This document shows, piece after piece, positions 3,162 through 60,714 of a stretch of DNA of 64,000 bases. This DNA is from Nemertoderma westbladi (Eukaryota > Animalia > Xenacoelomorpha): positions 1-64,000 of the forward strand of contig JAUCBJ010006632.1 of the NCBI GenBank assembly GCA_032718475.1, given 5' to 3'. Within the stretch, counting starts at the first letter, position 1, and every line of letters begins with the position of its first letter. Made by a program: the position numbers and the translations under genes. The notes under the pieces are model-generated. The model made no database searches, was not told where the DNA came from, and was given only the letters and a program-made list of their open reading frames with translations.

Positions 3162-3224
3162 TGAATATCTTAATGCAGTTTTATAAGGCTTTATTCCATA
3201 TTCAATTTTAGTTTATTAAATTGA

Positions 3225-28817: not shown

Positions 28818-30011
28818 TGTTCGCGCTTTCAGACCTTTGGCAGTTTAACCCGCCAAATTAGGATGTCTTCTAGATATTAAATGGCCTTTTAGCCTATGAC
28901 AAGTATTTGATTCACTACACTAGTCGAAACCAATCTGTGCGCGATCATTCACCCGCTGGTTATACCCGGGAGATTGGGTTCGACGGCTTAATCTTATTGC
29001 TATGTAAGCCTAATGTATTATTCGACTGACAGTATTATATAATCTCTGACAATATTATTCACCTTCGGGGAATATTAACAGTTCCTTTAGGACGTGGCGC
29101 TCTATCTATATAAACAGAGTTATGACTTAAACTACTCACAACGATATGGTTTAGTTATAATTCACATATATGGCGCATTCTTTAGGAAATGCTTCTTTAA
29201 CAGACTCACTCATATACAATGCTGCACAATACTGCACACTAATCTGCCGATCTTCACTGATTTTAGTCACATATAAAAGGAACACAGACTGACTCATGTA
29301 GGGTCTATCAAATAACATTCGATTCACTTCAAACCACTTTAACATAAGTCACAATCGTTTATCTGTAACCCTTCTCTCTTACCTTCGGTATATCAAGAAT
29401 ATTGGGTTTCGGGGTTATTTATCGTTATTCCAAATATAATAATTCATCAACCATATTATGAATAACTGACAGTAAATAGCAGTATAAAACAACAACTGAA
29501 CACTGATTGTTATGAGTTTGCAATGTTTCAGCAGTTTGTATGGTCAGATCAGGTCAGCAGTTAAAGGATATATGTCCTTATAATTAAACCTACTAGTGTT
29601 GGGCTAAAAAGCAGAAAAGCACAAAACACTACAAAGCCGTTCTTTCGTGGCTTTGAAACTCGTGACTACTACTCTATACGAGGATACCAACTACACTTAT
29701 TCCACGAAGCTCCCGTTCAACACAGAGAAAGAGCAGTGAGATAGGAAAAATTCAGTTCAGTAGCTCTGTGATAGGTCAAAATCAAGGCTAACTCAAATTC
29801 TATTGGGAGATACAAAAACAGGGCTATGACGCAACCTTCCTAGGCTGGTTGGCCGATTAAACAGAGCCCAGATACCTGCGTACAGCAAATCAGCCAATAA
29901 GCTGGTAGCTTGCACTATTTTAACTATAGATCCCTTTTTGAGTATTCTAGCGACCGGGGGGGAACTGGCCAGCAAAGCAAACGAACCAGTTATCCCACAA
30001 AAGCTTTTACA
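28818..30011 (-). mobile_element. 5' LTR of element B
   Basis: Direct repeat of 13402..14595. Confidence 0.97.
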
Positions 30012-34613: not shown

Positions 34614-37600
34614 ATGACTGAGTTGATAGAAGATGATCTTGGTATCAGGGAGCGATATACCCTACCGTTGCAAGCGTTTGTTGATAGCTTAATATGCGGC
34701 GACGATAGTCCCACTACTACGGAGGACGATGGCCGTTATATCGAACCGCCAATGTCGAAGGAACAACTCACGCGTGAATTGGACTATAGAAAATTCACCG
34801 CTCGCTATACACATCGTAATGGTACGTATATGGTCATCCTATCGATTTACACGATACGGACGATGTAGACACCGAAAGGGAAATGGTTCTATTTAAGTAT
34901 CATACCCAGCGGAGTCGGAAAGATAAACCGAGAATCGAACACAAGAATTCTATTCGAAACCGACTCGAAAGAGAAGACGTTGAAGAGCCGGATAAACGCA
35001 GTGACTTCAACGAATATCTGGAATTTTTGAGAGAAACATATCTCAATATTGCCAGTCAACAAAATCTAGAAACTCGATATCCTCAAGGTATACATCATGA
35101 CCCTATGATAGAACTCAAACGGCTCTATTTCACTATGATGTACCTTACCGCCGATCGACCGCTACCTGTTGTCCCGGATAGCTTCGAACAGATGGAGGAA
35201 ATTGTAAAACTGGAGAACGATCACCCGCGTTTCCCCTACAGGACGTGCGTCTTTGGTATTATTGCGATGAATGCCCTAGACCCAACCAGCAAACGGAAAG
35301 ACATAAACATCCGCGGAGACGTTGCACTAAACACAGTTTTACTCGCTATACTTACGGGAGTTTCGAGCGAAACTTGTTCGACGTATCACCCACGCTCGCT
35401 CGACTCAAACGATCCTTAAATAAACCCATGATCAGAGTTCCGGAATACTCGGTTAGACCTCCTCACTCCCTAGTAAGACCTCAAACTCTTGATCCTAATA
35501 GTATCACGGATCCTCCTGAACTGTATTCACTGTTCAAAGGTCTTGTGTTACCCGAACAATTAATCGGTGGCACTCCGGTAGTGGGCTCTCTAGATATTCG
35601 CCCATCCTACCTAGCCGGATTGGGACGCGGACATCTAATATCGCCGTTCAACCCATACAATCGTCCCGGTTTAACCCCGATACAACCCGTCACCAAAGTC
35701 AAGGAGAGCGTTATACGAAATGCGTTAGACTCTATTCGGCAGAAGATCGGAAAAGGAACTTACGATTGTTTAGAGAAACACAAATTGCAGCAACAAGTCC
35801 AAGCAGTGAAGGAGTTGGCCTTACCCCAGTTCGATCAAGAAATCAAGAACCTCGAGGAAGACATCGAACTTGGAGAAACCTATTCTCTACAAGAGTTTTT
35901 AAATGAACGCTTACAACGACAAGCGGAGGAAAATCAGCTCGAGGAGAAACACATCGAAATGGATGAGAGAGAAGAAGCAGCTTTAACCCAACCAGAAGCT
36001 CAAATCCTTATGACTGATCTCTATTCCAAAACCATCATTCATCCCTCAATGGTTCCCAATTTCGGAGACAAACTCTTCGCAACGGTACAACCCCAACTGG
36101 TTGATATCAACCTAAGATCCCGAGATCTTATCGCTGACGCTCCTATGTTACAGTGTCTGCCAATCGAGGCCGCTTGTGTCGACGGTATACTCGTTGAACC
36201 TCCGGACAATCGAGCGGATCTTGTCCGTCGTATGGTACACGAGGTCAACATACGCGCTAGACCTTTACCAAACTCGTTTTATGGGATCAAAGACCACCCT
36301 TATTATGTCAATCTAACTCAATATTATATGGTAAAACCTGAAGATCCGACACATAGTCTAAGGTTTCTACCACTAATAAATCCTCTCAACCTTGTCGAAC
36401 TCGAACAATTGCAGAAACATCTGGATCAGTTAGTAAAAGTAAACTCATTCAGAAAACCCTACAATGTTTCCAGAATAGAGAAGGATATAACGACTCCATA
36501 TAATCTCGATGGATTTATTAAAACTCGATTAGTCCATTGGAATCTCGACGTATTATTCGAGGAAGAGAGAATACAAAGATATGGAGATGTAGAGACGTAT
36601 ACTATACAGTATGTGGCGAATGCGCCACCTTGTGGCATCCGGTGGGGATTACCCTAGAGAACGCCACTAAAGAGTGGAACAAAACTCTTAACATTATCGA
36701 AATGTACGGAGTTGTCACTTATGATAACGAAGGTAGCGTTCCGGTCGGAGAACTGGGAACTACGCGCATGATACATATACGAGGACTATCTGGTTCTACC
36801 CACGTGTTTACTCGAGCGTGTTCCAACATGATTGATTATTCTTTTGAGACTCTCACCGAGATACAAAAGAAACTCCGACATGGACAATTCGAACTCGTGC
36901 AGCGTTACGTCACCAACACCGAGCGCAAACCGGCCATGGGTATTGATGGATTGATGTTACCCCAGCCCGTGCCGAGATGTTGTTTAACAAAAGAATCCTT
37001 AAAATCGGCTCAGCTGTTTATGGAGATCTCCAAAACGACTTCAGGAACATGGAGAATATCCCATATCCTTTCGTAGATATCCAGCTGATTGCTCCCTGGG
37101 CAGAAGGCCGAGGTTTCTTTCGAACTATGTATGCCAATACACCCAGCGGCATCAATAAAGTACAACGAACCTCCATCGGACATCTTGCTTTTCAAGAATA
37201 CGGATGGAATTTCAAAGTCAGAAACCCTATCAACTATCAACAAGTATATGGAGATCATTATTCTCGATTATACTTCGACGGACCATTGACCGCACCTAGC
37301 GTCGTGTATAGCTTCATGAGCGTTCCACTTCGTCCCTCATTAGCTATATACACTATCTTCGAAAACGCCGCACTTGTCGGTTGGCTAGCCGATGTGTGCA
37401 GTCGTACTATACGCGCCCATCCCTTGATACTTGGAACTAAACTCGCCAAGCTAGATAAACACAATAAATTCATCCGCTTTGAATGTTTTAGGCGATTCCT
37501 GACTCCGTTCCATAACGTTGATAGTCAGTTCAAGGACCGCGCTCTGACCAAGCTCAGCCAAAGAGACTCAGCTGCTGAGAAGTTAGACAGCGCTGGATTC

Positions 37601-38338
37601 GCCATTTTCAAAGACATTTGTATACAGAACTTACATTCCTCTGTTATACAAAGACCTCGAATCCCCATGGGTTATTCTATCGTGGAAGTTCAGACACTGG
37701 GTTCGCTTGAGGAGACAGCTACGCCTACCTCAGCTATGCAATTGGAAGACGAACCAATATGCTTAGAAACCGAGGAGATTCAGCCCACAGCGCCCCGGAG
37801 CAGAGACAACGACTACGTCTTGGAATGGTATCAAGGTCCACAATGTCTCACTGCGTACGATTATCAACATGCCAATTATGTTTCTAGGAAACGTTGCCGA
37901 TTGTGCGCATCTTGAGACCATTTCACCCCGGAGTACTCCAACGTGCCCTGCTCCTACTTCCATGAACAGCCTATGATGGAGATCTATTGTGCATATTGTA
38001 GACTCAATGACTTGCACATTTTCGCAGTCTGCCCCCAATTTATGACTCAATGCCATCATTGTCAGTTTAAAGGACATGCAAGTTTTGATTGCCCTTTCAA
38101 TCGCGATCTGGAAAGCGTAGATGAAATGATTACCCTACGCTATATCCGAGCCTGGGAAGCAAACACAGATTTACATTGTGAGTCACGTCATCGCTATTAC
38201 CCTGGACGTGCCTACGAAGGGGTTTATGCATTCCACCCGTACCTATTCGCGTCCGTGGAACAAAAATCTTGCACGCCGAGTTACGAACTAATGAAGCGTG
38301 TTGGCGAGAATATTTCGACCAAATTTGTTCATAAATAA
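34614..38338 (+). pseudogene. Element A extra 3' ORF: DEDDy 3'-5' exonuclease-like domain plus zinc knuckles (frameshifted)
   Basis: ExoI VTYDNEG (~36714), LP..V..MLFNKRILKIGSAVYGD, PFVDIQL, PLRPSLAIYTIFE. Then CRLC..H, CAYC..H..C and CHHCQFKGHASFDC. Colinear with C's 52272..55987. Confidence 0.75.
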
Positions 38339-39461: not shown

Positions 39462-39551
39462 TGAATTACAGAATTACCGGTAGTTTTTTTTTTGTAGGCC
39501 TATTTGTCTGTATGTGAATGTAGCCTTACTACACCAATATATGACTATACG

Positions 39552-41735
39552 TGTTACGGTATATGGCGCTGTATCCACAGTATTAGTCCATTATGCAGTA
39601 TGCAGTATTAGTCCATTATGCAGTATGCAGTATTAGTCCGTTATACTGTACGTAATATTAGTCCGTTGTGCAGTATAATTATTTAGATAAGGCGCAGTGT
39701 GGTGACATTTAGGTAAGGAAGTTAAAACGCCCATATATTTTGCATCCATTCATTTTGTATAGTATGTAGCCCTACCTACGTAATTTTGTATTAGGATATA
39801 TGTAGATAGTTCCAGGGTAGCGAGTTTACTCGGACCCTGGATTTTGTGCTTGCTGATATTAGTTTGATAGGGCTAGCATATAGGGACGCTGTCCTGGCCA
39901 TTCAGCAGCCAGAGACGTGATCCATTACCATATATGGTAATAATTTGAGGGCATAGGGCTACAATCCGGTCTCCTTATTGGATTAACTGCTTCCAGGTTG
40001 GTTTAATGCTAGCATGGACTGGAGAGCCAATGGGAGAGCGATTGAGTCACCTTATTGCATCACCCCATCGGGATCACCTATAAATTGGCGGTGTGCCGGT
40101 AGGGCCTTTTGTTGTTCATATGTTCATGCCTTATCACATGACACACCCCTGTTACAATTTACTTGCTGAGCTGTCTCTAATTTTGTATTAGGATATCGTA
40201 TTTTCTGCAATTTGCTAATTTTGATTAATTTCTTGGAATGATTTGCTAGTACGATTACTTTGCTTGTGTTTCTCAATAATTCCTTCGATTACTGCAAATT
40301 ACAATCGAACTATGATTTCTACCTTTGATTGATGGTTCTATGTGATTCTTTTCTGCGCAATAATCCCAAGGGATTCCTGAGACTGTCAGACTTTGTGATT
40401 TGCATGCGCCGCTACGGTAGCTATTAGCATCATGGAGGGCTAAGGTGCCAGTGGGCGGTGGGCGCATCGGGGGATTGAGCGACTAGGAGAGAGCGGAGGA
40501 TTCAAAGCGGGCAACGCTGGCCAGGGTCACCGTTGCCGCCGGGTATCTTGCACTGCGGCACGCAGACCGATCGCCGGTACAGTATCTAGGGGGCTGATGA
40601 TCCAGGTTTTGTCTCTATTTAGTATTAGGGGGGCAGGAATTGGGTTAGTTAGGAATCCTAGATGTACCCGGGAGAGGCCTGCGCGTCCGCGTATTACAAC
40701 GTTGAGTGTGGAGTACGAGTAGTGAATTGCACAATTGTAAACTGTGATTTCTAACGCTGATTGGTGTGTTATTGAAGTGTGCCTAAGATTACGAATGCTT
40801 AGATAGGCGCTCTTTTCCTTTGATTGATTTCTATTTCTTAGTTACAATAATTAGTTATTGATTAGGTCAAAGTAATACGGCAATTTAGGCTATTACTAGC
40901 GAAACCTGTTGCGTGATAAATTAGAATTACGTATTCTGGAACTCTTAGTAATTAGTACGCTGTTAAATATTTGTGACTGTAATTAATTAGTAAAAAATTA
41001 AGAATTAGTACGCAGCATAGCGGAGAGTAGCTAAGGTAATAATTAGTGTACTGTAAACTATTCACGCTGAGCGGTTATTTGCATTAGCGGGCAATCAGCT
41101 AGAACGCACTATTCGGTACGCACGATACGCTAGTAATTTTGCTGGCCTAAAGCCAGTCGCGGGCAGTTTTAGACTCGGAGTGGTATTATCCACGTAGAAA
41201 CAGATACTGTACCATTTTGATATTTTAAATATTCTCGCATTCACACATTACGTTAGGGAACCTCCAGTATTCGCGATTAGAAAGACGTAGGTAATAGCGT
41301 GCTTTAATAGTGATAGAATTAGGCGTAAGAATACTCTGAGTGCAAGGCCTCTCGCACTCGTCTTAAGTAAACTTAGGGAGCCGACTCGGGTTTATTGTTT
41401 TGGTTATTCCTGCGTGGCTCATAGATTCGAACAGTTAGCTCTCTATCGAGCAATCGGTAGAGAAAGGAACAAGCGATTTTGCAGGAGTTGTGTAAATTTA
41501 GTAAAATATATTAGCGGACGGCAGATTAGCGCCATCTAACGGTAAGTAGCGGTTTGTATTTAGCAACCCTTACAATTTAGTAATATCACGCTCCTGAGCC
41601 CCTTTACTTAACAGTAGAGCAGTCTTTGTGTCTTATTGGTTAGACGAGAACTTATTAGGTTGGCAGAAGGATATTAACGGGTATTGGTCTGTTCAACAGT
41701 TCTGCTGTTAGTATAGAGGTCGCGGTTGTTTATCA
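39552..41735 (+). mobile_element. 5' LTR of element C (2184 bp)
   Basis: TGTTAC...TTATCA, repeated at 57608..59788. Contains ~25-bp tandem units CAGTATTAGTCCATTATGCAGTATG at ~39578-39678. Confidence 0.97.
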
Positions 41736-43064
41736 GTAATACGCGTTTTTGTTTTGCTGTACTGCGTACAGTAAATACGAATTAGATTACTGTATTAGGT
41801 ACTGTACTGCGTACGGTGAGACAGAGAGTATTCTTAGGCTGATTAGTTTAGATTACTGATACTTCGTATCAGTAATACGCGCATATTGCTTTGCTGTACT
41901 GCGTATAGTAAGGCAGATAGTGTATTCTTAGGCTGATAGTAGTATCACAGTATTAAGTAATAAGTTGGAGCACGTGATCGTCTGCTGTAGGCTATAGGCT
42001 AGCGTACAGTAAGACATTGAGTTTATTCTATTAGGTTGTTAGTTTAGATTACTGTATTCACTGGCTGCGTACAATAGTACAGTAGTACATTAGGCTGATT
42101 GTTGTTACTGCGGACGGTAGAAGGACATTTGTTTGCCGTACCACACACAGTATCATTAGGCTGTTAGGTTGGTGTACTGTTTTACTTACTGTGCTGCATA
42201 CAGTGAATGTACGGTAGTGCGTTTTGCTAATTGCGAATACAGCAGTTCCTTAGGCCTTAGGGCAAACAGTAATTAGTAAGTTTTTTGAAAATTTTAGCTA
42301 GGTTTGCGAGAATTCAGTTTTCGGTCAAAATTATTTTGTAAAATTCTAGAGTTTTGTACCGGTATGTTAGGTAACCGCTTAGTTATTTTATACCATCTGG
42401 AGATACATGGCAAGACGGAACTTCTGAGTTTGGGGTTTGTGTGGGTCTGCGGGTTCGGTTTGCAATCAGCGAAGGGCCTGAATCTTTGGACGCGGACGTG
42501 GAATCTCACAGCAAACAAGGTTGGTTGTTCTGTTGGCACCAGTGTGTTTGTGGAAGCAGTAAAAAATTACCGGTTGTTTAACTGCGAAGCTGAACTCAAT
42601 TTATTAGTTAGGATATTTAGGTTTAGCCGGCCATGGTTTTTTGAATCGCTCAAGTTAGAGAGAGAGTTAGAGAGAGTCGCAACCCGAAGATGTAGCCACG
42701 CGCTAGTGGATACATATAATATTTGAAATTAAAATTACGTTGATTGGAGCTATATATATAAAATTAGAAATATTCGGGTGGCAAGTTTATTTTGAATATT
42801 TTGTATTAGATTCAAAGTTATTTTGTGCTATACCGGTATTTAATACTATATAGTAGCTATATAATAATATTTTTTGTTTAAATATTGTGTTAGTATTTGC
42901 TATAACTATATACCCCATTAAATTCACAATATTGCATTGCGAATTTATTTGACATTTGGACCAACTGATTATTTGACAAATAATTTGACCGTATTTCGGT
43001 TAAATTATAATTATATCTCGAACTTTTGCGAGATTTTTGCCAGAAGGCAAATATTATTTAGACT

Positions 43065-46000
43065 ATGAGTGTCTCAGACAAAGAGGCACTAGAGGACAGC
43101 TATGAGACGGCGGCTGGACCGCCGACTGACGATAGCGTAAATATTACTGTTGATGACAATGCCGACTATGACGACGCAGCGAGCGACGCTGACGTAAGTG
43201 AACAGGAGGACGAGACAGTGACTAGTGAGGAAGAACAGCAGCCTCAGGTAATAGTATTAGGATCCCCTACCGCTACTGATAGGAAGGACTGTATGGCAGC
43301 CCGGACAGAGGTGAGTGATAGGGAGGGTAGTGTAGTAGAAGCGAGAGCCCGGAGCCCGGTTTCCAGACCTGTGGGTATGGTAAGTGCCGTGGTCCCGACG
43401 GCTGTTAGGAGTACCTGTAGTTCCCGAAATAATCCTTCAAGTCCACCAAGTGTGAGTCAGGTAAGCGAGAGAGAACTTGATATCGCGATAAAGAAGAAAC
43501 TTCGCGCGCATGCCGGACATATAACTCGGACGGCGGACAAGGTAAGGAAGATGTTAGCTGACCCAGCGAACATCGGGAGGGTAGAGTTAGTAGAGATTAG
43601 AAGAGGATATAACTCAGCGTTATTCAAGCAGACGGAGGAGCTTGCAGTCCTAGCGAAGAAGGCAGTAGAGTCTCAGTCGAGCGACGTAGCAACGAGGATT
43701 TACGACAGGGTTTTAGCAGCCTTGTTAGAGCACCGCGAGTTATCGGAGCGATTCCGACGAGTTAGGACGGAGAACTGGCTGCTATGGGCATCACAAACGC
43801 AGGCGACTCAGGTGAGTGACGCAGAGTTAAGAGACTTAGTGGAGCGGGAAGAGATCCAAGATAAGGAAGAGCGCCGTTATCAGAGGGAAGTTACTAGCTG
43901 GCTGATGCAGAATGGAGTGGTGGTACCAGGCCAGGTGCTACCGACGACGGAGAACATTCAACAGAGGACGTTGACTCCACCCGACGACGCATCTAGAGAC
44001 AGCGGCGATTCCCAGGTTAGTCACGCGCGAGGTAAGGTAATATGTGCTAGATCCCTTGTTTCTCACAACTCGGCGGAGGAGAGAAGACGCCGACTAGACG
44101 AACAGCAGGCGGAAGTTTTGCGTGCACAGGAAGCACGGAAGGAAGCCGAGCGGGAACGGGAGCGCACACGTAAGTTGGACGCAGAGTTACGAGAGTTGGA
44201 AGAGATAAGTAAGCGCGAGCGAGCGGAACGCGAGCAAAGGGAATGTGAACTCCAAGCCGAGCGCGAGCGCGAGGAACTCGAATGCGAACAGAGAGAACGC
44301 GAACTCCAACTCGAATGCGAACGGGAAGCGAAGAAACGCGAACTCCAACTTGAATGCGAACGGGAAGCGAAGAAACGCGAACTCCAACTCGAACGCGAAC
44401 AGGAAGCGAAGAAACGCGAACTCCAAGCCGAACGCGAGCGCAAGAAACTCGATCGTGAACAGAAGGAGCGCGAGCTTCAACTCGAACGCGGACGCAAGGA
44501 ACGCGAACTCGAGATCGAGAAAAGAAGACGCGCATTGTATGAAGAAAAGGCGCGAGTGGAAGAAGAGAGCGCAGCGAGACGAGCGAGGGAAGAAGAAGAG
44601 CGTAAACTGGCGCAGTTGGAAAGTGCGAGATTAAGTTTAGAGAGCGAAGAACGGACTAGGAAGGCGAACGAAATCGCCGAGAAGGGGATGCGAATGCTCG
44701 AAGAATGTGGGGCGAGTGTGGGGACAGAGTTGCGAGAACTGTTCGCACTGCAGAAGGCCGAACAGGAAGCGAGAACTCCGACTATACGCGAGTCAACGAC
44801 GACCAGAATTCCTATACCCGGTCCAGCTATTACGAGTACACGGATCGTTAAACCGTTCTCTACATATCGCACGCCAGTTGGTATTAGTGCTTCACCTATC
44901 GCCCAGGATCTACGTCATCGGAACGCCGCACCACTGTATACCGAACGTGACAACGGAGAATTTAGAGAAGAAACTCCAACGGGACGAGTATTTGGCGAAC
45001 CGAACCCGCGGGTTTGGAATACGCGGACGGAGCGCCGACCCAGTTCGACGGAGAACTTCCGGGTTAAACCGGAAGAGGGATCATATGAGAGACAGCGGAT
45101 TACTCAGATAGAGCCGACTATACAACAGAACCCTAGCCAGGAATTTATTACGAGGGATGAGTTAAGTGCTAGTTTAGCGCAAGCTATATCGCCGCACATC
45201 CAACCTATAACGGACATGCTTAGCAACCTACGGTTAAAGGAAGCAGCCCAGGTAAGAAGTAATTCTAATCCTAGCAGGCCTGAGTTAGATAAAGTCCAGC
45301 CTAGTCAACGAGTACGCATATCGGAGGAGACTATACCACATAGACCTCAGGTAAGGACGCCTGTCCCGAATATCCATAATCCCAATTTCGAAAATTCGGC
45401 AGAAAGATTTATTGAGGAAGCTTGGGTCAGGGCCTCGGCGCGCAAACCATCGCGAGCGCTAAGGACTGACACTGAGTCAAGCGATGAAGAGGAAGAAATG
45501 AGATGTCAGAAGTCCCGAAACTATAAGGAAAGAAGGACGGACGCGGAGCAGGTAAGTTGGAACCACCGGGAAAGGACCAGACTTAACAACACTGCGGAAC
45601 TAAACCATTTGTTAACCCGGAACGACGCAACCCTTAGGGACATAGGTAAGTTTGCTGCTAGGCAAGGACTGCCGACGCAGCAACCCCAGAAGTTTATGGG
45701 TAACCATAAACATTGGAGGACCTTCAAAACCTATGTCGACGAGCAGCTAACCAACAGCACCTTTACTCCCAACGAAAAGTTCAACTATTTGCTTCAGATG
45801 CTCCATCGAGAACCTAGAGCCATTGCTGATAATTTCGTCGGCAATGAAAGAGCATTTGAGTTAGCGATGAAGATGCTTAGTGACATTTACGGGAATAAAA
45901 CCAAGATGGCGCAGTCGATAGTAGAAGACTTGGGTAAGGGCGGAAGGATTACAACTCCGTTAGAGCTGTTGAACTTAGCAAACGCTATTTCGAACGCATT

Positions 46001-49000
46001 GGACATCTTGAGGACGGTGAATCTACCTCATCATGGTGATCACGCCGAAGTTTTGAAAAGCGTAATAAGACGTTTAAACATGCGTTACAGACAGAAATGG
46101 CGCAAATTAGAGAATAAGTTGGAGGGCCAAGGTAAGGTGTTGACACTTCAGCATATTCATGACATGATAGCCACAGACGCAGTAGCAGAGATGAAATCAA
46201 ACTTCTCAGAAGAGAATATGAGGGAGTCTAAACCTGTTACCGGTAAGTCTATGGTAAGTTTTGACGATGACAGGACCACTGTGACATTTAACTCAGTAGA
46301 CAGATATAATTCGAATACCCCAGCCTTTAGATCAGACTCGCGAGTATGGTCAGGTGAGCGGTTAGATAGACCTAGGTTAAAGCAACAGGAGTTGCCGGAT
46401 GGATTTGTAGGTTGCCAATACTGTTTACTAAAGGAGGTAAGATCTGACGACCATAAGTTAGATAGTTGCAGACGGTTCAAAGAATTAAATTCGGAACAGA
46501 GAAGAGTTCAAGTGCGGACGTTGGACACCTGTTGGGCATGTCTTGCGCCAGGTCATGTACGGCGGCAGTGCCCGAACAGCAAGGACGGATGCATGGAATG
46601 CGGCAGACTACATCACAAGTTGCTACATGCGGATTTCCACACCCCAACGGACCGTTACTTACAGCGAAATCCTCAAAGGAAGGGGAGCAAAGAACCCGTA
46701 TCGATAAGGAGGAATACGTACACTGGCATCCAGGACGATGGTTACCAACCAGGTTCGTCGGACGAGGATGGCGAGTCGAGCGCGAGAGAAGTGACCTGCC
46801 AAGGTTTCACCGCGGATAGTTCATCGACCAGCGCGCGGACGTATTTATCATCGGCCACGTCGGAAATATTTAGCGTGATTCCGGTGAAACTCACTGGCGA
46901 TAAGGGATCGAAACGAATATATGTGATGCTGGACACTGCGTCCACATTATCGTATATCGACGAGGAAGTGGCGAGAGCCGTTTCTAGCTTCCAGGACGCC
47001 GAGGAGATCCAAATAGAGTTGAAGTCTATGCATGGGGTAGGAGACCTCAAGGTACACAGAATTTCGGTGGAACTAGATTCCCTACTTCCGAGAGACCAAC
47101 ACACTCGACAAGAACGGAAAGCTTTGCCATTGGACGGATTTAAGTGTCTAGCTATGAAGGGATTCGGCAGGCAGTTAGGTAAGGTGCCGCCGATGAGTCC
47201 CATAGCACAGGAGTATTTTGACAAGCTCAGGATACCCAGACACCAGGTAGGTTATAGGAATGTTTCTATGTTGATTGGTGCAGAACAGCTGATCGCACAC
47301 CAGATATGGGAAACGAGACCAGCTGAGCCGCATGTCAATGGACCACATGCCCATAGGACCATACTAGGTTGGTATACACGAGTACCCATGTCTTATGAGT
47401 TTACAGGTGGCGACAAGCCAATGGACAGATACGATGAATTACAGCCTATAATTCAACCACCGTTAGTAGAACCACCAGACATAGACGAGTTTAGGAGAAC
47501 CTGTATTGACCACTATAGTGACTTTAGCGAGTCGGACGAGGAGTTGATTCCCGATAATGTTAGGTTGTCGGAACCACTTCACAATGACCGGACAGATAGT
47601 GAACCCGAGGACTACTGTTATCAGACCCGTGGGTCTGGTTCAGCGGCCCACGCTACCTATTTGACTAACGTTTTGACTTATACAGACATAGTGGAGGGTC
47701 AAGTGGCTAAATATCGAGACCTAGACATTTTCCAATACAGTGAGGAGGAATTACAGAAGGAATTGATACGCCAGGACCTCGAGACAGGAGCCAGAACCGT
47801 CGAATGGCTGGACAGGGACGCAATGGAACCCGGTGGATATGACCTAGCCATGTCTACTGATGAGAAGCGGTCGCTGGAGATGATGGAAGATACCATACGT
47901 CTACTACCGACTGGACATTTTGAAGTTGGAATGTTGTGGCGTCGACAACCACCTAAGTTGGAGAACAACTACAGCTTAGCCTTGAAAAGATTAAACGGAG
48001 TAAGGGCTCGGTTGTTGAGGAATCCAGGCATTAGGGAGAAGTATTGCGCCCAGATCAACAACTATTTCGCCAAGGGATTTGCTGGGAAGGTAGAGGACCC
48101 TGACTTAGTGACAGACCAGACTTAGCTTCCACACCACTATGTGACTCACCCTGACAAGCCAGACAAAGTCCGAGTAGTCAACGACTGCGCAGCAGTCTAT
48201 AGAGGTATGTCCCTGAATTCAGAGTTGATGGATGGTCCCAACCTGAATAACTATTTGATTGGAATACTGTTGCGTTTTAGACAGCGGCGATTCGCATTTA
48301 CTTGTGACATCGAGGCGATGTTCCACCAGGTAAGAGCCTGTAAGGCAGACCAGGATAGCCTTCGATTTCTCTGGTTTGAGAATGAAGACTTATCCGGCCC
48401 AGTGGTTACATACCAAATGTACGTTAGGATATTTGGCGCCCGCGATAGTCCGAATGGCACGCTGTTCGTTCTAAAGAAAACGGCAACAGCCCAGATTGGT
48501 AAGTACCCAGTAGAAGTAATCGAGTCCATCTTGAGAAACTTCTATATGGACGACGGATTGGTGTCCAAGGACACAGCGGAACAAGCCATAGAAGTGGCTC
48601 ACGGCCTGCAAGAGTGCTTGGCTACAGGGGGTTTTCCTCTAACCAAGTTCACTACTAACTCGGAGGCCCTATTAGAATCGTTCCCGGTAAAAGATCGCGG
48701 GAGCGGAGACATTGAATTGGGGGTAGAACCAATCCCCATGGCGCGAGTACTGGGACTCGCTTGGAATCCGAACTCGGATAAGTTCCAGGTAAGAGTTAGA
48801 TTTGAGCCCAGTAGCCCAGACAAAGTTTTGACAAAGAGAATTTGCTTATCGACATTAAGTAGACTATTTGACCCGATGAACTTTATCAGTCCGGTTATAT
48901 TACAGGCACGAGCGTGCATGAGGAAAATTTGGTTGTCCGACTTAGAGTGGGACGAACCAATATCTCCTATACATGCAAAGCAGTGGAGGGAGTGGGAAGC

Positions 49001-51507
49001 CGAGTTGCATCTATTGAAAAATATAGATGTACCCCGTTCCTACTTTCCGAATCAGCTGGTATTTCCAGCTGATTTAGAACTGCATTTATTTAGTGACCGG
49101 CTTTGGTATGGTAGCCTACCTTCGCCGAGAGGTAAGTCAGGACAAATTTGAGACGGCCTTTGTGACTTCTAGATCAAAGACAATGCCGGTCAAATATATG
49201 ACTGTCCCTCGTGCAGAGTTACAGGCGGCTGTAGTTTCGGTCGAGGTAAGTAAGCAAATAACTGAGGAGTTAGACACGACATTGACCTTATTCTATTGGA
49301 CGGACGCATCCTTGGTGTTAGTATACATTGCGGCCGACAATATTGCACTAAAGACATTTGTGGCCAATAGACGCGCTCAGATCGTTGATTTTTCGACGAA
49401 GGAACAATGGAGACATTGTCCGGGAGTGTTGAACCCGGCCGACATAACTTCGAGAGGTGCAATGCCGGCGGAATTCTGTCGGGAAGAGTCGCAGGAGTTT
49501 TGGTTGCATGGACCTGATTTTCTAACGAGGACACAGGAACATTGGCCAGAGCGACTAAAGATAGTGACCAATCCGATGCCTGAAGATGCAGAAGTCAAGG
49601 TGGAGAAAGTCTCTAAGTCGAAGTCTAAAGCCAAACTTAAGTCATTGGAGCGGCCTGAAGAGTCATTGGAGCGGCCTGAAGAATCATTGGAGCGGCCCGG
49701 AGACCTGTCAGACCAACAGACTTACGTGACTACTAGGTCCGGAAGGGTAAGTTATGACGTAAAACCACCCTTACAGACTAAACCAGAGTCACAGTTGGTA
49801 AGTGACGGACAGAAAATGACCGACACAATGGAGTCTTTGGTTTCCAAACCTGCGGGTTTGGATTCGAAACTTCCATTAGTTAGCGGACAACCGTCGCTGG
49901 CATTAGAGTCATGCAGTATTTATGACAAATTACTAAATTCGTCTGCCTCTTGGCTGACAATTTGTAAAAGAACTGCGTGGTTAAGCCGATACGTTTCGTA
50001 CCTTTGTTTAAAACATTCGAAACATTTGAGAGAACCATTGAGCACCAATAGTGAGCGAATTCAGAAATTGAAACAACCTCTGACAGAGGATGAGATTGAT
50101 CAAGCGGAATTAAAGCATTTGAAGCATTATCAAATGTGTGCCTTCCCGAAAGAATTCCATCTATTATCGGCTCATCGACCAGTTCTCTATAAACCCCTTA
50201 GAAAATGGAGTCCATTAATCCATAAGGGTTTAATTTGTCATAGATCGAGAATCCAGACTGTCGACATAAACTCACAGTTTAGGTTCCCAGTGATAATCCC
50301 TAGTCACCCAATAGAATTGCAAAGAGCGATTCTATGGGATATACACAAGAGGTTGCATCACGCGGGAAAGTTACACTGTCTGTCGGCAGCGAGACAGCGA
50401 TTCATTCTATTGCAGCCAAGCAGGGCAGTAGGCACTATGTACGACGCCTGTCTGGTTTGCAAGAGAGTGAACGCCAGAGTATTGGAACAGGAGATGGCTG
50501 AACTCCCGGAAGCGAGAGTGCAGGCATATGACCCACCCTTTACGAATACAGGGGTGGACTGTTTTGGTCCGATTGAAGCAAAGAGTGGACGGCTGACCCA
50601 CAAGCGATGGGGTCTGCTACTGACATGTATGGCCAGTAGAGCCATACACATCGAGCGTGTGGCAGACATGTCGACCAAATCTCTGCTCCTGGCCTTAAAG
50701 AGATTTATGGCCAGGAGAGGACTAGTAAAGGCGTTCTACTCTGACAAGGGTACAAACTTTGTCGGAGGGAATAGCGAGTTGAACGCGGCTCATAAAGCAG
50801 CACAGAATAAGGAAATTTCTGCAGCACTTTTGCCGCAACGAGTAGAATGGAGATTCAATACTCCAGAAAGTCCTTGGAGAGGAGGAAGTTGGGAGCGTTT
50901 GGTTCGCTCTGTGAAGCAGGCCATTGCCAAAACATTGCCTGTGAACAAACAACTTACCGACGACGAACTGGTCACAGCTTTTATTGAAATCGAGCATACC
51001 CTAAACTCGAGGCCGATAGCTATGTTGCCAGACGGTGTTGCATTAACGCCGAATCATTTGCTAATGCAGAGTCCAGCATTTCTTGTGCCGGCATCAGAAC
51101 CCATTAGTGCCGACCTATATAGTCGTAAGAGCTGGAAAGTAACACAGTTTGTGGCGTACACATTCTGGGAATATTGGCGGGAATACTATCTTCCCACCAT
51201 ATCCACCAGAACAAAGTGGTACAAAACGGTTCGGAGTCTCCAAAGGGGAGATTACGTGTTGATAACCGAACCCATTGTCAAGAGAAAGTATTGGGAGACG
51301 GGAGTGATCTTGCACACACACCCAGACGTGCAAAACATAGTGCGCACAGTCACTGTGAAAATTAGGTGCAAGTGTCCGCACCCAAAAAAGTGTAAAACTA
51401 ATGGTTTACACACCTTGGACCGACCGGTCCAAGATATTGTGTTATTAGAGGAGACACGTATCGAGACGGGAGATTATAATTTGTCTCCTGCCTCAAAACT
51501 GAATTAG
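43065..51507 (+). pseudogene. Element C gag-pol polyprotein
   Basis: Coiled-coil Gag, triple knuckle, MLDTAS, FYMDD, HCPGVLNPAD, GVDCFGP, SDKGTNF, WRGGSWER. One in-frame stop (48123-48125) and a frameshift in the RNase H LHLFSD motif (~49095). Confidence 0.95.
44210..44520 (+). repeat. Coding tandem repeats (ERELQLECEREAKK-like, 42-bp units) in C Gag
   Basis: Repeated GAACTCCAACTCGAATGCGAACGGGAAGCGAAGAAACGC. A further 21-bp x3 repeat (SLERPEE) lies at ~49641-49698. Confidence 0.9.
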
Positions 51508-52271
51508 TGTTGGACGCAACTCACTTCGTATGCATTCCTCGTATGCAAATACAAGGAAATGCATAGGAGCGGGGTTGTGGTGATTTGCGTTGAGTTTTGT
51601 CTGGTGGGTATCAAAACAAAATTTTATTTCAAAAATTTTGGAAAAAATTAGAAAATTTTAAAAATTAGAAGTGAACCCAAGACAATTCCAGACGCTGTGT
51701 ATAGACGCGTTTTAGAATTCGTCTATAGATAAACAGTAATTTGAAAAGTCGTGAAGCCTGGAAAATAGCATTTAGAAACCATGGTGACGGCTATATTACG
51801 TAGGAGTGTAAATTGAGTTTAGCAACTTCCACAGATTGGTGCCAACAGTGCAACTAAGGTGCTAAAGGTTAGTAGCACCAGAGGGGTGCACGGACCCCAC
51901 TCAGTAGTTTGCAGGATGTGTGATGTTCGATTATCAAACCTGTGGGTTTGGTATAGTCGAGTATTGTGGCTATAGTCCTTTCTAACTACTGTAGTTTAGT
52001 ACGAGTAATGGGAGTAGTTTGGGCATCAAAAAGTGAGTTGGTCACGGCCAGTTTATCTCCAAAGTTTTTGCGCTATGCATGGGAATAGGTTAGAGGATAG
52101 TTAGTTAGGAAGAGACGGGATCTAGAGAGTCGAACCTGAACTGCTGGAAGGCGGGGGGGGGGGGTTCGGGAGGTCTGTCCTTCGGCGACATCTAACTGAT
52201 TTACCCACAGTGTAGTTGGTTACGTAACGGCACTTATTGGGATATATATATATGTATATACGCGTAACATA

Positions 52272-55200
52272 ATGGAGAGGGATATTAGAGCGCAACCGCG
52301 CAGAGGATTTACTGCCAGAGAGGAGGCGGAGCTACCATTCGCGCGACCAGGATGTAAAGACTCTAACGTTTACTACCATGGGCGGTCCGTGATGGAGCTG
52401 AACGGGAAGTATAAACCAAGTTATGATAAAGAATTACGGAGAGAAAGAATGAGAGCGTTGGGGGACCGGATGGAAGTCTTGCGGAGAGAGTATCGCACGC
52501 GGTATCCCTACGACTTTGCTTTGGACGTGTGCGACATTAGCGCAGATCCGGACGAGGAAATCGCACGACTATACCATATGAATATGTATTTACGACATGA
52601 GGAGCCTCTACCTGCAGTCCGAGACCAGTTCGACGGAATGCACCTGTATCGGAGGACTCGAGGCGAGGATCAGGAGACGCCGAAAGTCTTCAGCGTATAC
52701 AAGCTCTTCTACAAGTGTGGTGAATGCATGAATAAACAGGACGTGGCGATTCCCGACCGATTAGACGAGCAACATCCGGAACCGATATTAACGCGATGTC
52801 CAGCTCACCAATTCCTTAGATACAACGAGGGAGGTTACCTGATGAGCAACCCGATGATCAGTATCGACTTCAGTGGAAAGCGACCTCCGAGACCCATTAC
52901 GCCGACCGTTACGACATTAGATCCGTATACGGAGATTAAACCCTGTTCGACACCCAGTTTGATAGAGACGGCAGCGGCCATTTTGCTGTACCGATCCTAC
53001 AAGGATCTAGAGGCGCGGCGCGAAGCGGCGCGGGACTCGGGTACCAAACCCGTGGGTTTGGAGCTCTCGAGTCCCTGGACTGCGTTTACTTCACCTCACC
53101 GAGTGAGAAGCCTCACACCTGAGCATCAGGACGACATAGACGCGTTGCGGCAGGAGGAGCGAGTGGCGAAGGCGAAAGAGTTATCAGGATAGCTACTTAT
53201 TAACAGGATAGCGGAGTATAATAAGACCGCGGATAGACATCAAGAGGAGACGAGGAGAGTGACCGGATTTGTTCCACAGGTCGTATCTCAACCCGGACCG
53301 GTGTATTATTCCGACGGCACCGAACCTGCGATATTAGTAGATCATCCGGAGTCGCGAGAAGCGATACGATGAAGATGGTAAGAATGGCGGACCATTGGAA
53401 CGTTGACTGTCTACGGGAAGTTTTATGCGCGAAGTTCTTGCGTGATGTCCCAATGCAGATCACAGATTACGACACTTTGGACAAGATTGGAGCTCCGGGG
53501 AAGGAGAGTAAGTTATTCGGATGGTTGGATAAGTACATCAAGGTATGGGTCGCGGTGGCTACATTCCCAGATGACGAGGAAGTAGACCAGACGTGGCTGA
53601 GGAGGAAGGGTTCTTATACCCGATATGATGACCACAAGGCGATCGAGCGCATGTGGACCCCATCAGATGAGATTCAGCGTCAGTGGAGGAAAACGGAGGA
53701 ATCACTGCAGGATTGGAGAGTGATGTTCTACGACAATGAAGGAGGGTCCCATCAGGAATGCTTGACTAGCAAGTGTATTCAAATTCGTGCGGCCGATGGT
53801 GTGACTCATGTGTTTATGCGTGTGAGGGCGGATCGAGAGAGACCGGAGCCCATCATAACGACACAATATCGGAAAGGGAAGGATCCTAGGGAACAGATTT
53901 TGGAGGTATGCAGGCGAGGAGGTATGCACGGAGCGGAGCGTATCGACGCCAGGATGTTACCAAAGAAGGTTAGAGAGGCTATTCTCAACCAAGATTACGT
54001 CAAGGTGGGATCGGGAGTCCAGAGCGATTTGGAGAGCGACTTCAACGCCATGACTGATCTGGAAGATAGATTGCCGAGACCGTTTGTCGACACCAAGCTA
54101 TTGTTGCTATGGGCACAGGATATTGGAATTTATAGGGAGTATCCCAACTCTGCCAAGACTGGTATGGGCTTTATAGCACACTTGTTGTATAATTGGGACT
54201 TTAAGTTGAAGACGCAAAAGAAGTACGAGGAGGCGTATGGCGAATACAACACGCCACCGGGAGCGGAGTTCAAATCCCACTTCAAGCGGCAAGCGTTAGT
54301 GTATTGGAACATTTGCGCGCCACCCCGTGCGTCGCTACAATATTATTTGGTGCTTGAGTCGAACACGGTGACTTGTTTATTAGCGGATATCGTTGCGCGA
54401 GTTTTGAAGCGTCATCCATTGGTATTCGGAGGAGATCAATACGTTCGCTCGAAAGGGGGAATCCAATCCGACGTGATGAAGCGTTTCTTAACCCCGTTCT
54501 TCAACCAATCGTTAGAGAATACGTCGATGGTGAGGAGAGGATTAGCGATATTCGAAGGAGTATATCGACAGAACATCGGAGATTTGGGAGACCGACCGTC
54601 GATGGAATATCCGACGCCAGAAGCTTTGGAGAAGTGGTTCGGGAATCAAACCCGCGGGTTTGGTACTCCCTTCCACTCGGAGGCTGATAGACCTGTTAAG
54701 GAGGGCTGGCCGGAAACGTTAGTAGAGGTGTTCGGAGTAGATCTTCCGGTGGAGAAGACATATCCGAAACGAACGCGGGAGGAAATATTGGAGATAGAGG
54801 ACAAGGGCGAGGATGTTTACTTTGTTCCGGATCGACAACCGTTGACCGGAGAGGACGACATCGTATTAGACATTGGGAAGGAAGGAAGTGCGAAACCGAT
54901 TGGAGACCTCATATACGAGAGGGCCTGGTTTCCACAAGCGCGTAGGTGCAAATTGTGCGGCAGCACAAGGCACAATCTAAAGTCGTGCGACGCGGTAATA
55001 GAGGCGGCGCATAAGGTCTGTCGTTGGTGCAATGAGACCGACCATTCGTTTCACACGTGCACCGTCTTCATTTCTCAATGTGGATATTGTGGAGTAAAAG
55101 GACACCGTAGCGCGAGATGTCAGCTGCGAGATGATTCCTTTCAAAACCATAGCGCTAACCTACTTCGGGTGATGTTAGATAAGTGGGAGAGTGTGGCGGA

Positions 55201-55987
55201 TTACCATATTCAAGCGCAGATGCGTTGGTTACCATTTAAAGCGGGATATGGGTTTTGGGCGGTAGACCCATCGCATGTTGCGTACGAGCCATATCTACAA
55301 TCGCTACCACAATATCAGGAGCTCATCCTAACTGCTCAAGACCTTCCACAGAACACTGGAGTTATCGTAGTCCGAGAATACTTCAGACAATTGAACATGG
55401 ACAATAAGTACACATGGAACTTCGTTGCTATTTGCGATCGCATCACGAAGGGTGTATTTACGGAGACTAGAAAAGTGGTACGCGCGCGAGGTGATTGGAG
55501 GATGGCGGCTATACAATACCGCAACGAATTCTTGTTGACTCATGTGCCAGTGGGTTCATTGACCGCCGAGAGGATACAGGAACAAAGGATCGCAGCGACC
55601 ACAGCGACGACCGCTGGAGCTCAAGGCTCGCGGAAAGAACCAGGAGGAGGGGTCCAAGACAAGCGTCAAGTCAAGGACGACCACTACCACTCCATTATAG
55701 AAGCTCAACGGTTGCAGCGCAAGGCGCAGGGGGCGTCTGAGAAAGCGCGTGTGCAACTGCAGAAGGAAGAGTTGGCGGAAGCGACCACGGGAGCGCGACA
55801 ATTGGGACGAGGCCGAGGGAGAAGTTCAAGCCGAGAATCTGTCGGGGCTCAGGGAACGTCGTCGCCGGTTCCGGGGAGTGACGCCTCACGGACGCCGTCA
55901 ACGGAGTCGACTAGAGGTAGATTAGTGTATCTGGGAAGGGGACGAAAGAGAGGAGCGAGCCCAAAGAACCCAGGAGCGGGTCGATAA
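52272..55987 (+). CDS. Element C extra 3' ORF: WRN/EXD-type DEDDy 3'-5' exonuclease domain plus three CCHC zinc knuckles
   Basis: VMFYDNEG, CIQI, LPKKVREAILNQDYVKVGSGVQSD, FVDTK, TGMGFIAHLLYNWDFK, YW..PP..SLQYYLVLE. Knuckles CKLC..H..C, CRWC..H..C, CGYC..H..C. 52272..53192 reads on past one TAG and joins 53369..55987 by a frameshift. Confidence 0.8.
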
Positions 55988-57607: not shown

Positions 57608-59788
57608 TGTTACGGTATATGGCGCTGTATCCACAGTATTAGTCCATTATGCAGTATGCAGTATTAGTCCATTATGCAGTATGCAGTATTAGTCCGTTAT
57701 ACTGTACGTAATATTAGTCCGTTGTGCAGTATAATTATTTAGATAAGGCGCAGTGTGGTGACATTTAGGTAAGGAAGTTAAAACGCCCATATATTTTGCA
57801 TCCATTCATTTTGTATAGTATGTAGCCCTACCTACGTAATTTTGTATTAGGATATATGTAGATAGTTCCAGGGTTGCGAGTTTACTCGGACCCTGGATTT
57901 TGTGCTTGCTGATATTAGTTTGATAGGGCTAGCATATAGGGACGCTGTCCTGGCCATTCAGCAGCCAGAGACGTGATCCATTACCATATATGGTAATAAT
58001 TTGAGGGCATAGGGCTACAATCCGGTCTCCTTATTGGATTAACTGCTTCCAGGTTGGTTTAATGCTAGCATGGACTGGAGAGCCAATGGGAGAGCGATTG
58101 AGTCACCTTATTGCATCACCCCATCGGGATCACCTATAAATTGGCGGTGTGCCGGTAGGGCCTTTTGTTGTTCATATGTTCATGCCTTATCACATGACAC
58201 ACCCCTGTTACAATTTACTTGCTGAGCTGTCTCTAATTTTGTATTAGGATATCGTATTTTCTGCAATTTGCTAATTTTGATTAATTTCTTGGAATGATTT
58301 GCTAGTACGATTACTTTGCTTGTGTTTCTCAATAATTCCTTCGATTACTGCAAATTACAATCGAACTATGATTTCTACCTTTGATTGATGGTTCTATGTG
58401 ATTCTTTTCTGCGCAATAATCCCAAGGGATTCCTGAGACTGTCAGACTTTGTGATTTGCATGCGCCGCTACGGTAGCTATTAGCATCATGGAGGGCTAAG
58501 GTGCCAGTGGGCGGTGGGCGCATCGGGGGGTTGAGCGACTAGGAGAGAGCGGAGGATTCAAAGCGGGCAACGCTGGCCAGGGTCACCGTTGCGGGCGGGT
58601 ATCTTGCACTGCGGCACGCAGACCGATCGCCGGTACAGTATCTAGGGGGCTGATGATCCAGGTTTTGTCTCTATTTAGTATTAGGGGGGCAGGAATTGGG
58701 TTAGTTAGGAATCCTAGATGTACCCGGGAGAGGCCTGCGCGTATTACAACGTTGAGTGTGGAGTACGAGTAGTGAATTGCACAATTGTAAACTGTGATTT
58801 CTAACGCTGATTGGTGTGTTATTGAAGTGTGCCTAAGATTACGAATGCTTAGATAGGCGCTCTTTTCCTTTGATTGATTTCTATTTCTTAGTTACAATAA
58901 TTAGTTATTGTTTAGGTCAAAGTAATACGGCAATTTAGGCTATTACTAGCGAAACCTGTTGCGTGATAAATTAGAATTACGTATTCTGGAACTCTTAGTA
59001 ATTAGTACGCTGTTAAATATTTGTGACTGTAATTAATTAGTAAAAAATTAAGAATTAGTACGCAGCATAGCGGAGAGTAGCTAAGGTAATAATTAGTGTA
59101 CTGTAAACTATTCACGCTGAGCGGTTATTTGCATTAGCGGGCAATCAGCTAGAACGCACTATTCGGTACGCACGATACGCTAGTAATTTTGCTGGCCTAA
59201 AGCCAGTCGCGGGCAGTTTTAGACTCGGAGTGGTATTATCCACGTAGAAACAGATACTGTACCATTTTGATATTTTAAATATTCTCGCATTCACACATTA
59301 CGTTAGGGAACCTCCAGTATTCGCGATTAGAAAGACGTAGGTAATAGCGTGCTTTAATAGTGATAGAATTAGGCGTAAGAATACTCTGAGTGCAAGGCCT
59401 CTCGCACTCGTCTTAAGTAAGCTTAGGGAGCCGACTCGGGTTTATTGTTTTGGTTATTCATGCGTGGCTCATAGATTCGAACAGTTAGCTCTCTATCGAG
59501 CAATCGGTAGAGAAAGGAACAAGCGATTTTGCAGGAGTTGTGTAAATTTAGTAAAATATATTAGCGGACGGCAGATTAGCGCCATCTAACGGTAAGTAGC
59601 GGTTTGTATTTAGCAACCCTTACAATTTAGTAATATCACGCTCCTGAGCCCCTTTACTTAACAGTAGAGCAGTCTTTGTGTCTGACGAGTGGTTAGACGA
59701 GAACTTATTAGGTTGGCAGAAGGATATTAACGGGTATTGGTCTGTTCAACAGTTCTGCTGTTAGTATAGAGGTCGCGGTTGTTTATCA
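57608..59788 (+). mobile_element. 3' LTR of element C (2181 bp)
   Basis: Direct repeat of 39552..41735 with a few substitutions and two small indels. Confidence 0.97.
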
Positions 59789-60177
59789 ATACGAGTAGGC
59801 ACTTTACTGAGAAGCCACAATGGGGCAATAACTGAGACAACCTGAGTTCCATTACTGCGCCATGGTATGTTTTGTATAATCTTATCCAACGATATCAAAA
59901 ACATATGTTCAGTTAACCAGTACAGCAGTGTATTTCAGTAGTTATAAAGATTTAAGATATCTGACTGTCAACCACACAGAATACCTAAATATAATATATG
60001 TATATATCTTTACAGCCCGGACTGGTACCCAATCACCTGTACCGCTTACACATACCGTTATACAGTATGATAATTGTATAATATTACATATCACACCAGT
60101 GTTGTAATGTTTGAGGACAGGGGTAGTGATAAGTATCCCTTTACATACAGAACAGTGCAATAATAGTAATGTTCTAG

Positions 60178-60714
60178 AACTTTCGCAAAGACGCGACGCT
60201 TCTACCTACAGAATACCGCCGGATTTCCTATACAAATCGAGGCGAAAATGTAAAACTGGAAACCTCTTCTCTTATCATGACAACCGACATCAGTCGCGCG
60301 ACTACGGGGTTTATTTCGACGAGAAGTTTGGGAAGTTTAAATCATACGGAGATAAGCGGCAGCATCTGTCTGCGAACCACATCGAGTGGGTGAGTGACAC
60401 AGCTGTGCGAGGTACCCAGCCCTACACGTCGGTTTACCGGAGGAGTTTCAACCGAGTCTTGTCTGTAACCCCGGATACTACCGCGGGGATATCGCTTGAT
60501 ATCCCTCCTGTATTCCGGGCCGCCACGTCGGAATCATTCCGAACCCACTCCCGCTCCCCCCGTAGTCAGGGCGACTGATCGCTCGGAATATATCCGGGTT
60601 GGTATGACAGCTCCTTTTCCGGTTCATTTAGGACTCCTCTTTGCTCCCTCACTTTGGCAAAGGAACCGTTCCAGAAATAACTGGCGATATTCAAACAGAG
60701 GCGTTAAAATATAA
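60178..60714 (+). CDS. TEX36: TEX36-like (HDNR-domain) host coding segment, exon or pseudogene
   Basis: LFSYHDNRH..YGVYFDEKFG..DKRQHLSANHIEW resembles TEX36 (FSVHDNRH..DKRQHVSRNFNLW, from memory). Possible acceptor TTCTAG at 60172-60177. The C-terminus appears to shift frame (60496..60714). Confidence 0.6.

Follow-up and report, generated by a model that had tools for sequence, protein, structure and literature searches.

A 64,000-nucleotide stretch of DNA from Nemertoderma westbladi (assembly GCA_032718475.1, contig JAUCBJ010006632.1, positions 1 to 64,000; hereafter the window) held three nested long terminal repeat (LTR) retroelements, A, B, and C, in the span 4807-59788. In each of them, the primer-binding site (PBS) directly after the 5' LTR was complementary to a segment of the element's own LTR, and self-priming is likely in all three, in C at the site referred to as PBS1. 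The fuller reading, in which element C would prime its minus strand with its own LTR-derived RNA and in which a second site (PBS2) and its hairpin would be an old duplication, is given a probability of roughly 0.68. The pairing sites were as follows.

41736-41745, plus strand: PBS1 of element C, directly 3' of the LTR end, without TGG
40688-40697, plus strand: candidate self-primer of C, 5' LTR copy, 10 Watson-Crick pairs to PBS1
58736-58747, plus strand: candidate self-primer of C, 3' LTR copy, 10 Watson-Crick pairs and one G-U pair to PBS1, 12 Watson-Crick pairs to PBS2
5215-5225, plus strand: primer segment of element A, pairing with the A PBS at 5908-5918
29561-29571, minus strand: primer segment of element B, pairing with the B PBS at 28817-28807

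The sequence-only reading, which had proposed self-priming by C, possibly together with a conformational switch, placed the LTR end TTATCA at 41735 (it likewise occurs at 59788), the PBS behind it, and complements at 40688 and 58738, and all of these were present. GTAATACGCG was found at only two sites in the 64 kb, 41736 and 41872, and CGCGTATTAC, the complement of PBS1, also at only two, 40688 and 58738. Starting from the base that directly follows the LTR, the complement ran over 11, 11, and 10 nt in A, B, and C, respectively, with an offset of 0 in all three. Dinucleotide-shuffled LTRs gave the anchored match in 3/2000 (A), 3/2000 (B), and 7/2000 (C) cases, and one PBS set against another element's LTR matched over just 4-7 nt. 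No TGG, as expected of a transfer RNA (tRNA)-type site, followed the LTR in A, B, or C, and no tRNA gene or Rfam match was found near the sites.

The primer segments of A and B were orthologous in the alignment: five of the 11 pairs had changed on both sides and none was broken, and a helix as good as this one was obtained in one of 1500 null replicates. When all helices of at least 8 bp in A were considered (229), 38 were kept in B, versus 20.1 ± 3.4 in the null (0/1500), and a 13-bp U5-leader helix was present in both elements. The distance from primer to PBS in the three elements was 0.7-1.05 kb. Self-priming was the claim of the sequence-only reading that gained support, through the shared offset, the compensation between A and B, the lack of TGG, and the splice-junction complements of relatives described below.

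Distant BEL/Pao relatives were taken from 80 metagenome loci (approximately 40% reverse transcriptase (RT) identity), 37 of which had a flanking repeat; 13 of these were taken on, and 11 had a usable LTR end (L006 and L032 were left out because of undefined ends, and the ends of L018 and L050 were uncertain). A self-complementary PBS was found in eight of the 11. In seven loci from six families (L001, L007, L008, L012, L015, L039, and L040), the complement, 10-15 nt long and reached in 0-3 of 200 shuffles each, existed only across an exon-exon junction of the LTR; the LTR introns (GTAAG...AG) measured 67-149 nt, and the complement began 0-4 nt past the LTR end. All seven donors were GTAAG, while the scan had required GT only. 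That these matches exist only after splicing indicates RNA as the pairing partner. L043 had a contiguous 13/14 complement in both LTRs (753-766 and 912-925; 74% identical), L061 had a tRNA-type site (1/11), and neither a contiguous nor a spliced complement was found in L018 and L050. Each relative family tested had its own, different PBS. Use of the distant relatives as negative controls was rejected, because a test for contiguous complements alone missed those at splice junctions. Conversely, splice-junction primers in A, B, and C were discarded as candidates: 181-200 of 200 shuffles reached the score, and the complements in these elements are contiguous. A 25-nt LTR-end pattern gave no matches in metagenome contigs, and none of 42 viral contigs was confirmed.

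The proposed mechanism starts from the observed arrangement, in which the 10-11 nt that follow the LTR in A, B, and C complement one LTR segment whose 3' end abuts the LTR end. The pairing would form in the genomic RNA, aided by U5-leader helices, and a free 3'-OH would arise after the paired segment. The preferred route is Tf1-like, with the segment at the 5' end of the RNA and a cut after approximately 11 nt; about half of the total probability falls to it, and most of the remainder to an internal or 3'-end primer. A Tf1-like start fits the 11-nt length and the pyrimidine-purine step at the 5' edge of the segment (A, B, and the 3' LTR of C). The LTR pair and the target duplication of this copy of C end at PBS1. 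In the established scheme of LTR replication, the primer is copied back into the PBS during plus-strand synthesis, and primer and PBS could thereby change in step and rapidly.

The second site of C lies in a structured leader with the following features.

41731-41774, plus strand: module 1 (the last 5 nt of the LTR, PBS1, a spacer, and a hairpin-capable unit)
41867-41911, plus strand: module 2, a duplicate of module 1 that matches it in 40 of 45 columns (89%), with PBS2 at 41872-41883
41852-41876, plus strand: 11-bp hairpin, a variant of the repeated leader hairpin, covering five of 10 nt of PBS2
41750-42210, plus strand: leader array of degenerate hairpin-capable repeats

The sequence-only reading had placed a second site at 41867-41882; a site was indeed there, and the 17-mer ends at 41883. 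Its reported 12-nt pairing with the 3' LTR version was an exact match to 58736-58747, and the perfect hairpin at 41852-41876 was found as described, with 11 bp. Beyond that reading, PBS2 was found inside a duplicated module of 45 nt, and the hairpin aligned to the repeated leader unit with one additional base per arm. The hairpin was the sole perfect 11-bp stem among six distinct stems of at least 10 bp in the window, and the stretch 41700-41940 was strongly structured (fold z -4.86), with 41811-41827 as the predicted partner of the hp1 arm of the leader. The chance expectation for a 15-nt repeat of the LTR/PBS junction was 5e-7. Since the 40/45 identity is far more diverged than the LTRs, the duplication is older than the LTR pair; the 3' arm of the leader unit resembles the LTR/PBS junction, a short homology by which the duplication could have joined. 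Opening PBS2 cost 8.1-10.3 kcal/mol and opening PBS1 3.3-6.2 kcal/mol. Priming at PBS2 would give an LTR longer by 136 nt, and both LTRs of C stop at PBS1, as do two other insertions in run X4 (ends at 41735/41736). In a 600-nt search range, neither A nor B had a second PBS. One X1 contig joined 41746 to 41917, without the hairpin and PBS2, as weak evidence with a side of 23 nt, and two further joints over PBS2 (41774 to 42031 and to 42156) began in the repeated unit and were ambiguous. These sequence comparisons suggested that PBS2 and the hairpin are probably an old local duplication, with PBS2 partly covered by the hairpin, rather than a switch.

Upstream of the primer, A and B shared further helices, and C had a possible helix of its own.

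5173-5204, plus strand: three segments upstream of the A primer, in nested pairing with 5847-5856, 5812-5819, and 5746-5754, compensated in B
41323-41337, plus strand: LTR segment of C complementary to leader 41825-41839, a possible U5-leader helix (duplex -24.1 kcal/mol) from the sequence of C alone

The counterpart in B was 29612-29582 with 28993-28884. The A/B helices tie the 42 nt before the primer to U5 and cross the primer helix; the null value for the nested set was 2/1500, in a test defined post hoc, and each helix was weak alone. Either 5'-3' pairing that serves strand transfer or a primer at the 3' end would be compatible with them. A candidate in C, in which the upstream flank would lock the 3' primer copy (58728-58740 with 59390-59403), was rejected: its predicted probability was approximately 1, yet 11/200 shuffles did as well.

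Elements A and C also carried accessory open reading frames (ORFs) of a possible nuclease.

53237-55987, plus strand: accessory ORF of C, DEDD-like 3'-5' exonuclease domain and CCHC knuckles, from profile, fold, and motif comparison
36522-37915, plus strand: accessory ORF of A, DEDD-like 3'-5' exonuclease and CCHC knuckles

The family profile matched EXD2 (E 1.1e-06). In the fold search, the top rows were DEDD-type enzymes, none at E ≤ 0.001, with a model pLDDT (predicted local distance difference test) of 62.7. Of the acidic motifs, D-x-E and Asp were present in both C and A, and the third was Glu. The ORF had an atlas lead of 0.87, and eight relatives were found among 1.84 billion representatives; a word-index search for the protein gave none from 6302 candidates, and a single-sequence PDB search returned spurious rows only. 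These comparisons pointed to DEDD-like (DnaQ-like) exonucleases of putative activity in C and A, and a tie between the exonuclease and priming is speculation.

Several observations weigh against self-priming as proposed, or against parts of it. With wobble and a mismatch allowed, C alone was borderline (19-26 of 300 block shuffles), and therefore it takes the three elements jointly to make the case; A and B do not count as independent examples, and the LTR of C is unalignable to theirs. A global fold of 40688-42000 gave a probability of 0.0 for primer:PBS1 and ≤0.02 for primer:PBS2, and the primer helix was missing from the A/B consensus fold. TATA at -30 was absent from A, B, and C and present in only one of eight relatives. 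The upstream helices suggest that the sequence before the A/B primer would be part of the folded RNA, and a purely 5'-terminal model would then need 5'-3' pairing. As for PBS2, the 12-nt primer duplex was stronger there (-18.7) than on PBS1 (-15.6), with overlapping net energies, and in the duplication a core of 15 nt was unchanged (0/15 versus 5/30 differences, Fisher p 0.15).

Among the other explanations, a host RNA (a tRNA half or other small RNA) may be the primer, with the LTR complement acting as a helix of structural or regulatory function that covers the PBS. The ICTV, the international committee for virus taxonomy, describes the family as tRNA-primed (PMC8742986), half-tRNA priming without TGG is reported for Copia lineages in the accessible part of PMC6317226, and one of the 11 relatives has the tRNA-type site noted above. 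A fixed host RNA would keep the PBS constant, however, and the close relatives A and B differ at five of 11 PBS positions, every one matched in the LTR, while each tested family had a different PBS; we accordingly regard a host primer as unlikely. Chance complementarity in AT-rich repetitive sequence is very improbable: the borderline result for C and the noise, with scores up to 13, that a blind scan gave on 15 loci having candidate rather than known LTR ends are in its favor, but it would have to produce the identical offset in three elements, the orthologous position and five double changes in A and B, and the splice-junction matches in seven of 11 relatives. A switch, as put forward in the sequence-only reading, would have the hairpin at 41852-41876 open and its 5' arm cover the LTR/PBS junction, blocking priming or shifting it to PBS2. 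The arm did match 10 nt of the true junction (41731-41740; -10.8 kcal/mol as a free duplex), the 12-nt match of PBS2 leaves a 7-nt overhang beyond the hairpin, and for a 12-nt primer PBS1 and PBS2 have overlapping net energies. The predicted probability of the arm:junction pairing was nevertheless 0.0 in three span settings, versus 0.8-0.97 for the hairpin core; A and B lack such a duplicate, both C LTRs and the two X4 insertions end at PBS1, so that the integrated copy is delimited there, and the hairpin belongs to a repeated leader family and is missing in one contig. The switch is thus quite improbable.

Priming from the 3' end would use the segment in the 3' LTR as the primer; the upstream helices would hold the RNA in a circle, and its end would be shortened as far as the PBS duplex, perhaps by the DEDD-like exonuclease that the element itself encodes. 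This reading draws on the three nested compensated helices of A and B, which, crossing the primer helix, form most easily when the primer end is free, on the exonuclease encoded by C and A, and on the intact 11-12-nt complement in the 3' LTR of C. On the other hand, the exonuclease ORF is absent from B, the youngest element (LTRs 99.8% identical); DEDDy ORFs are known from other retroelements (from the accessible part of PMC5408684); the third acidic motif is Glu; no poly(A) signal was found just upstream of the segment; the analogous helix in C was not significant; and the test of the nested helices was set up after the data had been seen. A giant BEL/Pao lineage that circularises its RNA and primes from the 3' end of that RNA, with its own DEDD exonuclease trimming to the PBS duplex, would be priming without a tRNA and without a Tf1-type cut, and we give it little credence. 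The Tf1-like form of self-priming at PBS1 remains the preferred reading.

The architecture of C and its neighbors was as follows.

39552-41735, plus strand: 5' LTR of C, 2184 bp, TG...CA
57608-59788, plus strand: 3' LTR of C, 2181 bp
39547-39551, plus strand: left copy of the 5-bp target-site duplication ATACG (right copy 59789-59793)
40682-40687, plus strand: 6-nt microduplication in the 5' LTR, adjoining the primer segment upstream, without a counterpart in the 3' LTR
43062-51507, plus strand: gag-pol of C in three frame pieces (stop at 48123-48125, frame change near 49078-49151)
52200-53192, plus strand: accessory ORF of C, weakly similar to A 35182-36657 (pairwise E 3e-05)
4807-5907, plus strand: 5' LTR of A
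30011-28818 and 14595-13402, minus strand: LTRs of B

Element C measured 20237 bp in total, and its TG...CA LTRs were 99.1% identical in the self-comparison of the window (10 difference events over approximately 2190 columns). A profile search gave the gag-pol domain order DUF1759, Peptidase_A17, Integrase_H2C2, and DUF5641, with the Integrase_H2C2 match under the curated cut-off; by its proteins alone, C is classed as a BEL/Pao-type LTR retroelement. It had 89 protein relatives at about 40% identity, and in an RT tree of unnamed fetched loci, built without a named reference or outgroup, C and pieces of A and B fell in one clade (support 0.989). When a polypurine tract of approximately 10 nt was sought before the 3' LTR, a short purine-rich end alone was found, common to B and C. 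The form without the 6-nt microduplication was that of the 3' LTR, 15 contigs of public run X1, and five of X3; one X3 contig had different letters at the C primer position. Summed contig depth fell at the primer and at 41720-41963 in X1 and X3, but such depth does not measure copy number and was given no weight. In X5, guessed to be RNA, the contigs left 40500-40804 and 41659-41963 uncovered, a gap that carries no evidential weight. The accessory ORF pair 52200-53192/35182-36657 had a common Cys/His cluster and no Pfam match, and B had a broken copy near 14828-15569. In the gag of C, a 39-nt tandem repeat at 44188-44522 gave a long charged coiled-coil-like stretch, and A and B had other repeats in the same region.

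Element B (minus strand, 16610 bp) was inserted reversed within the pol of A, and C within the sequence downstream of the A accessory ORFs; the 3' LTR of A lay outside the 64-kb window. Right after the PBS of A (5926-5950) and B (28801-28779, minus strand) was an invariant 9-bp hairpin with AATAAA in its 3' arm, which may mask a poly(A) signal. A leader helix of 39-47 bp was present in A (6206-6420) and B (28429-27925, minus strand), in the latter with a 290-bp tandem duplication of the helix. Upstream of A, a Gag-like ORF of another retroelement occupied 2025-3212 (minus strand) in an interrupted region, with Retrotrans_gag and zf-CCHC matches below cut-offs, and on the other side a frame at 60108-60578 (plus strand) matched the HDNR domain (PF15115, E 5.8e-14) and is probably a host exon.

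Animal genomes contain BEL/Pao elements in abundance, and these have been described as tRNA-primed. Should the pairing provide the primer, each of the three LTR superfamilies would include self-priming elements, and such priming may be widespread among marine BEL/Pao lineages, in at least two forms, one contiguous (A, B, and C) and one built by splicing (the relatives). Annotation tools that require a tRNA PBS would miss or mislabel such elements. Because nothing stops primer and PBS from changing jointly, the three elements offer natural covariation data on the question of how a 3'-OH arises without a tRNA; the duplicated site PBS2 by itself adds little. For the nematode element Cer7, a tRNA-like primer encoded by the element itself has reportedly been proposed, which is another route.

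According to the ICTV, Belpaoviridae (genus Semotivirus) have an 18-nt tRNA-Arg/Gly PBS, genomes of 4.2-10 kb, and LTRs of 0.2-1.2 kb (PMC8742986). Element C resembles them in its TG...CA LTRs, target duplication, and gag-pol with DUF1759, Peptidase_A17, and DUF5641, but it lacks a tRNA-Arg/Gly PBS and has 20.2 kb with LTRs of 2.18 kb (B, 16610 bp). In the literature searched, seen in part and with most subscription papers outside its scope, no report of self-priming in BEL/Pao was found; priming terms gave nothing relevant in the main texts of PMC3118150 (whose supplements may bear on size or prevalence), PMC554778, PMC6238403, PMC12440569, and PMC9094657, and only a reference in PMC11042837. 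In the accessible portions of seven papers (PMC7175516, PMC4600332, PMC6317226, PMC3601003, PMC5443660, PMC6934838, and PMC5445492), self-priming is reported for Tf1, Tj1, and Tf1/sushi elements and predicted for Tcn1 and Copia TAR.

The closest likeness is to Tf1/Tf2 of Schizosaccharomyces pombe, Tj1, Tf1/sushi, and Tcn1, in which, as far as the accessible text goes, the PBS beside the 5' LTR complements approximately 11 nt of RNA derived from the LTR of the element itself and, as in A, B, and C, a tRNA site is missing (PMC7175516, PMC4600332, and PMC6317226). Those elements are, however, Ty3/gypsy chromoviruses, and C, with Pao-type domains, is not a member; the primer-PBS distance in A, B, and C is 0.7-1.05 kb, an RNA start and an RNase H cut are predicted here, and C has an exonuclease ORF and a duplicated PBS module. 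Copia TAR elements (Houba and Osr-1), for which self-priming was likewise predicted from PBS-LTR complementarity (PMC6317226, in part), are plant Copia elements with an unrelated domain order and host. The bdelloid Juno/Vesta LTR elements and Terminons share a DEDDy ORF3, a DEDD-type 3'-5' exonuclease, downstream of pol (PMC5408684, whose text gave no matches for PBS or self-priming), but they are other lineages, and by our reading of the motifs the Asp-to-Glu change is at another motif position. Fungal GalEa Copia elements with the Conserved Hairpin Site also lack a tRNA PBS and have a hairpin just after the 5' LTR; in the accessible part of PMC5445492 no LTR complement is found for them, whereas in A, B, and C a complement exists and covaries between A and B. 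What is new here is the covarying contiguous form of the self-primer in BEL/Pao, together with the giant size, the upstream helices of A and B, and the DEDD-like exonuclease.

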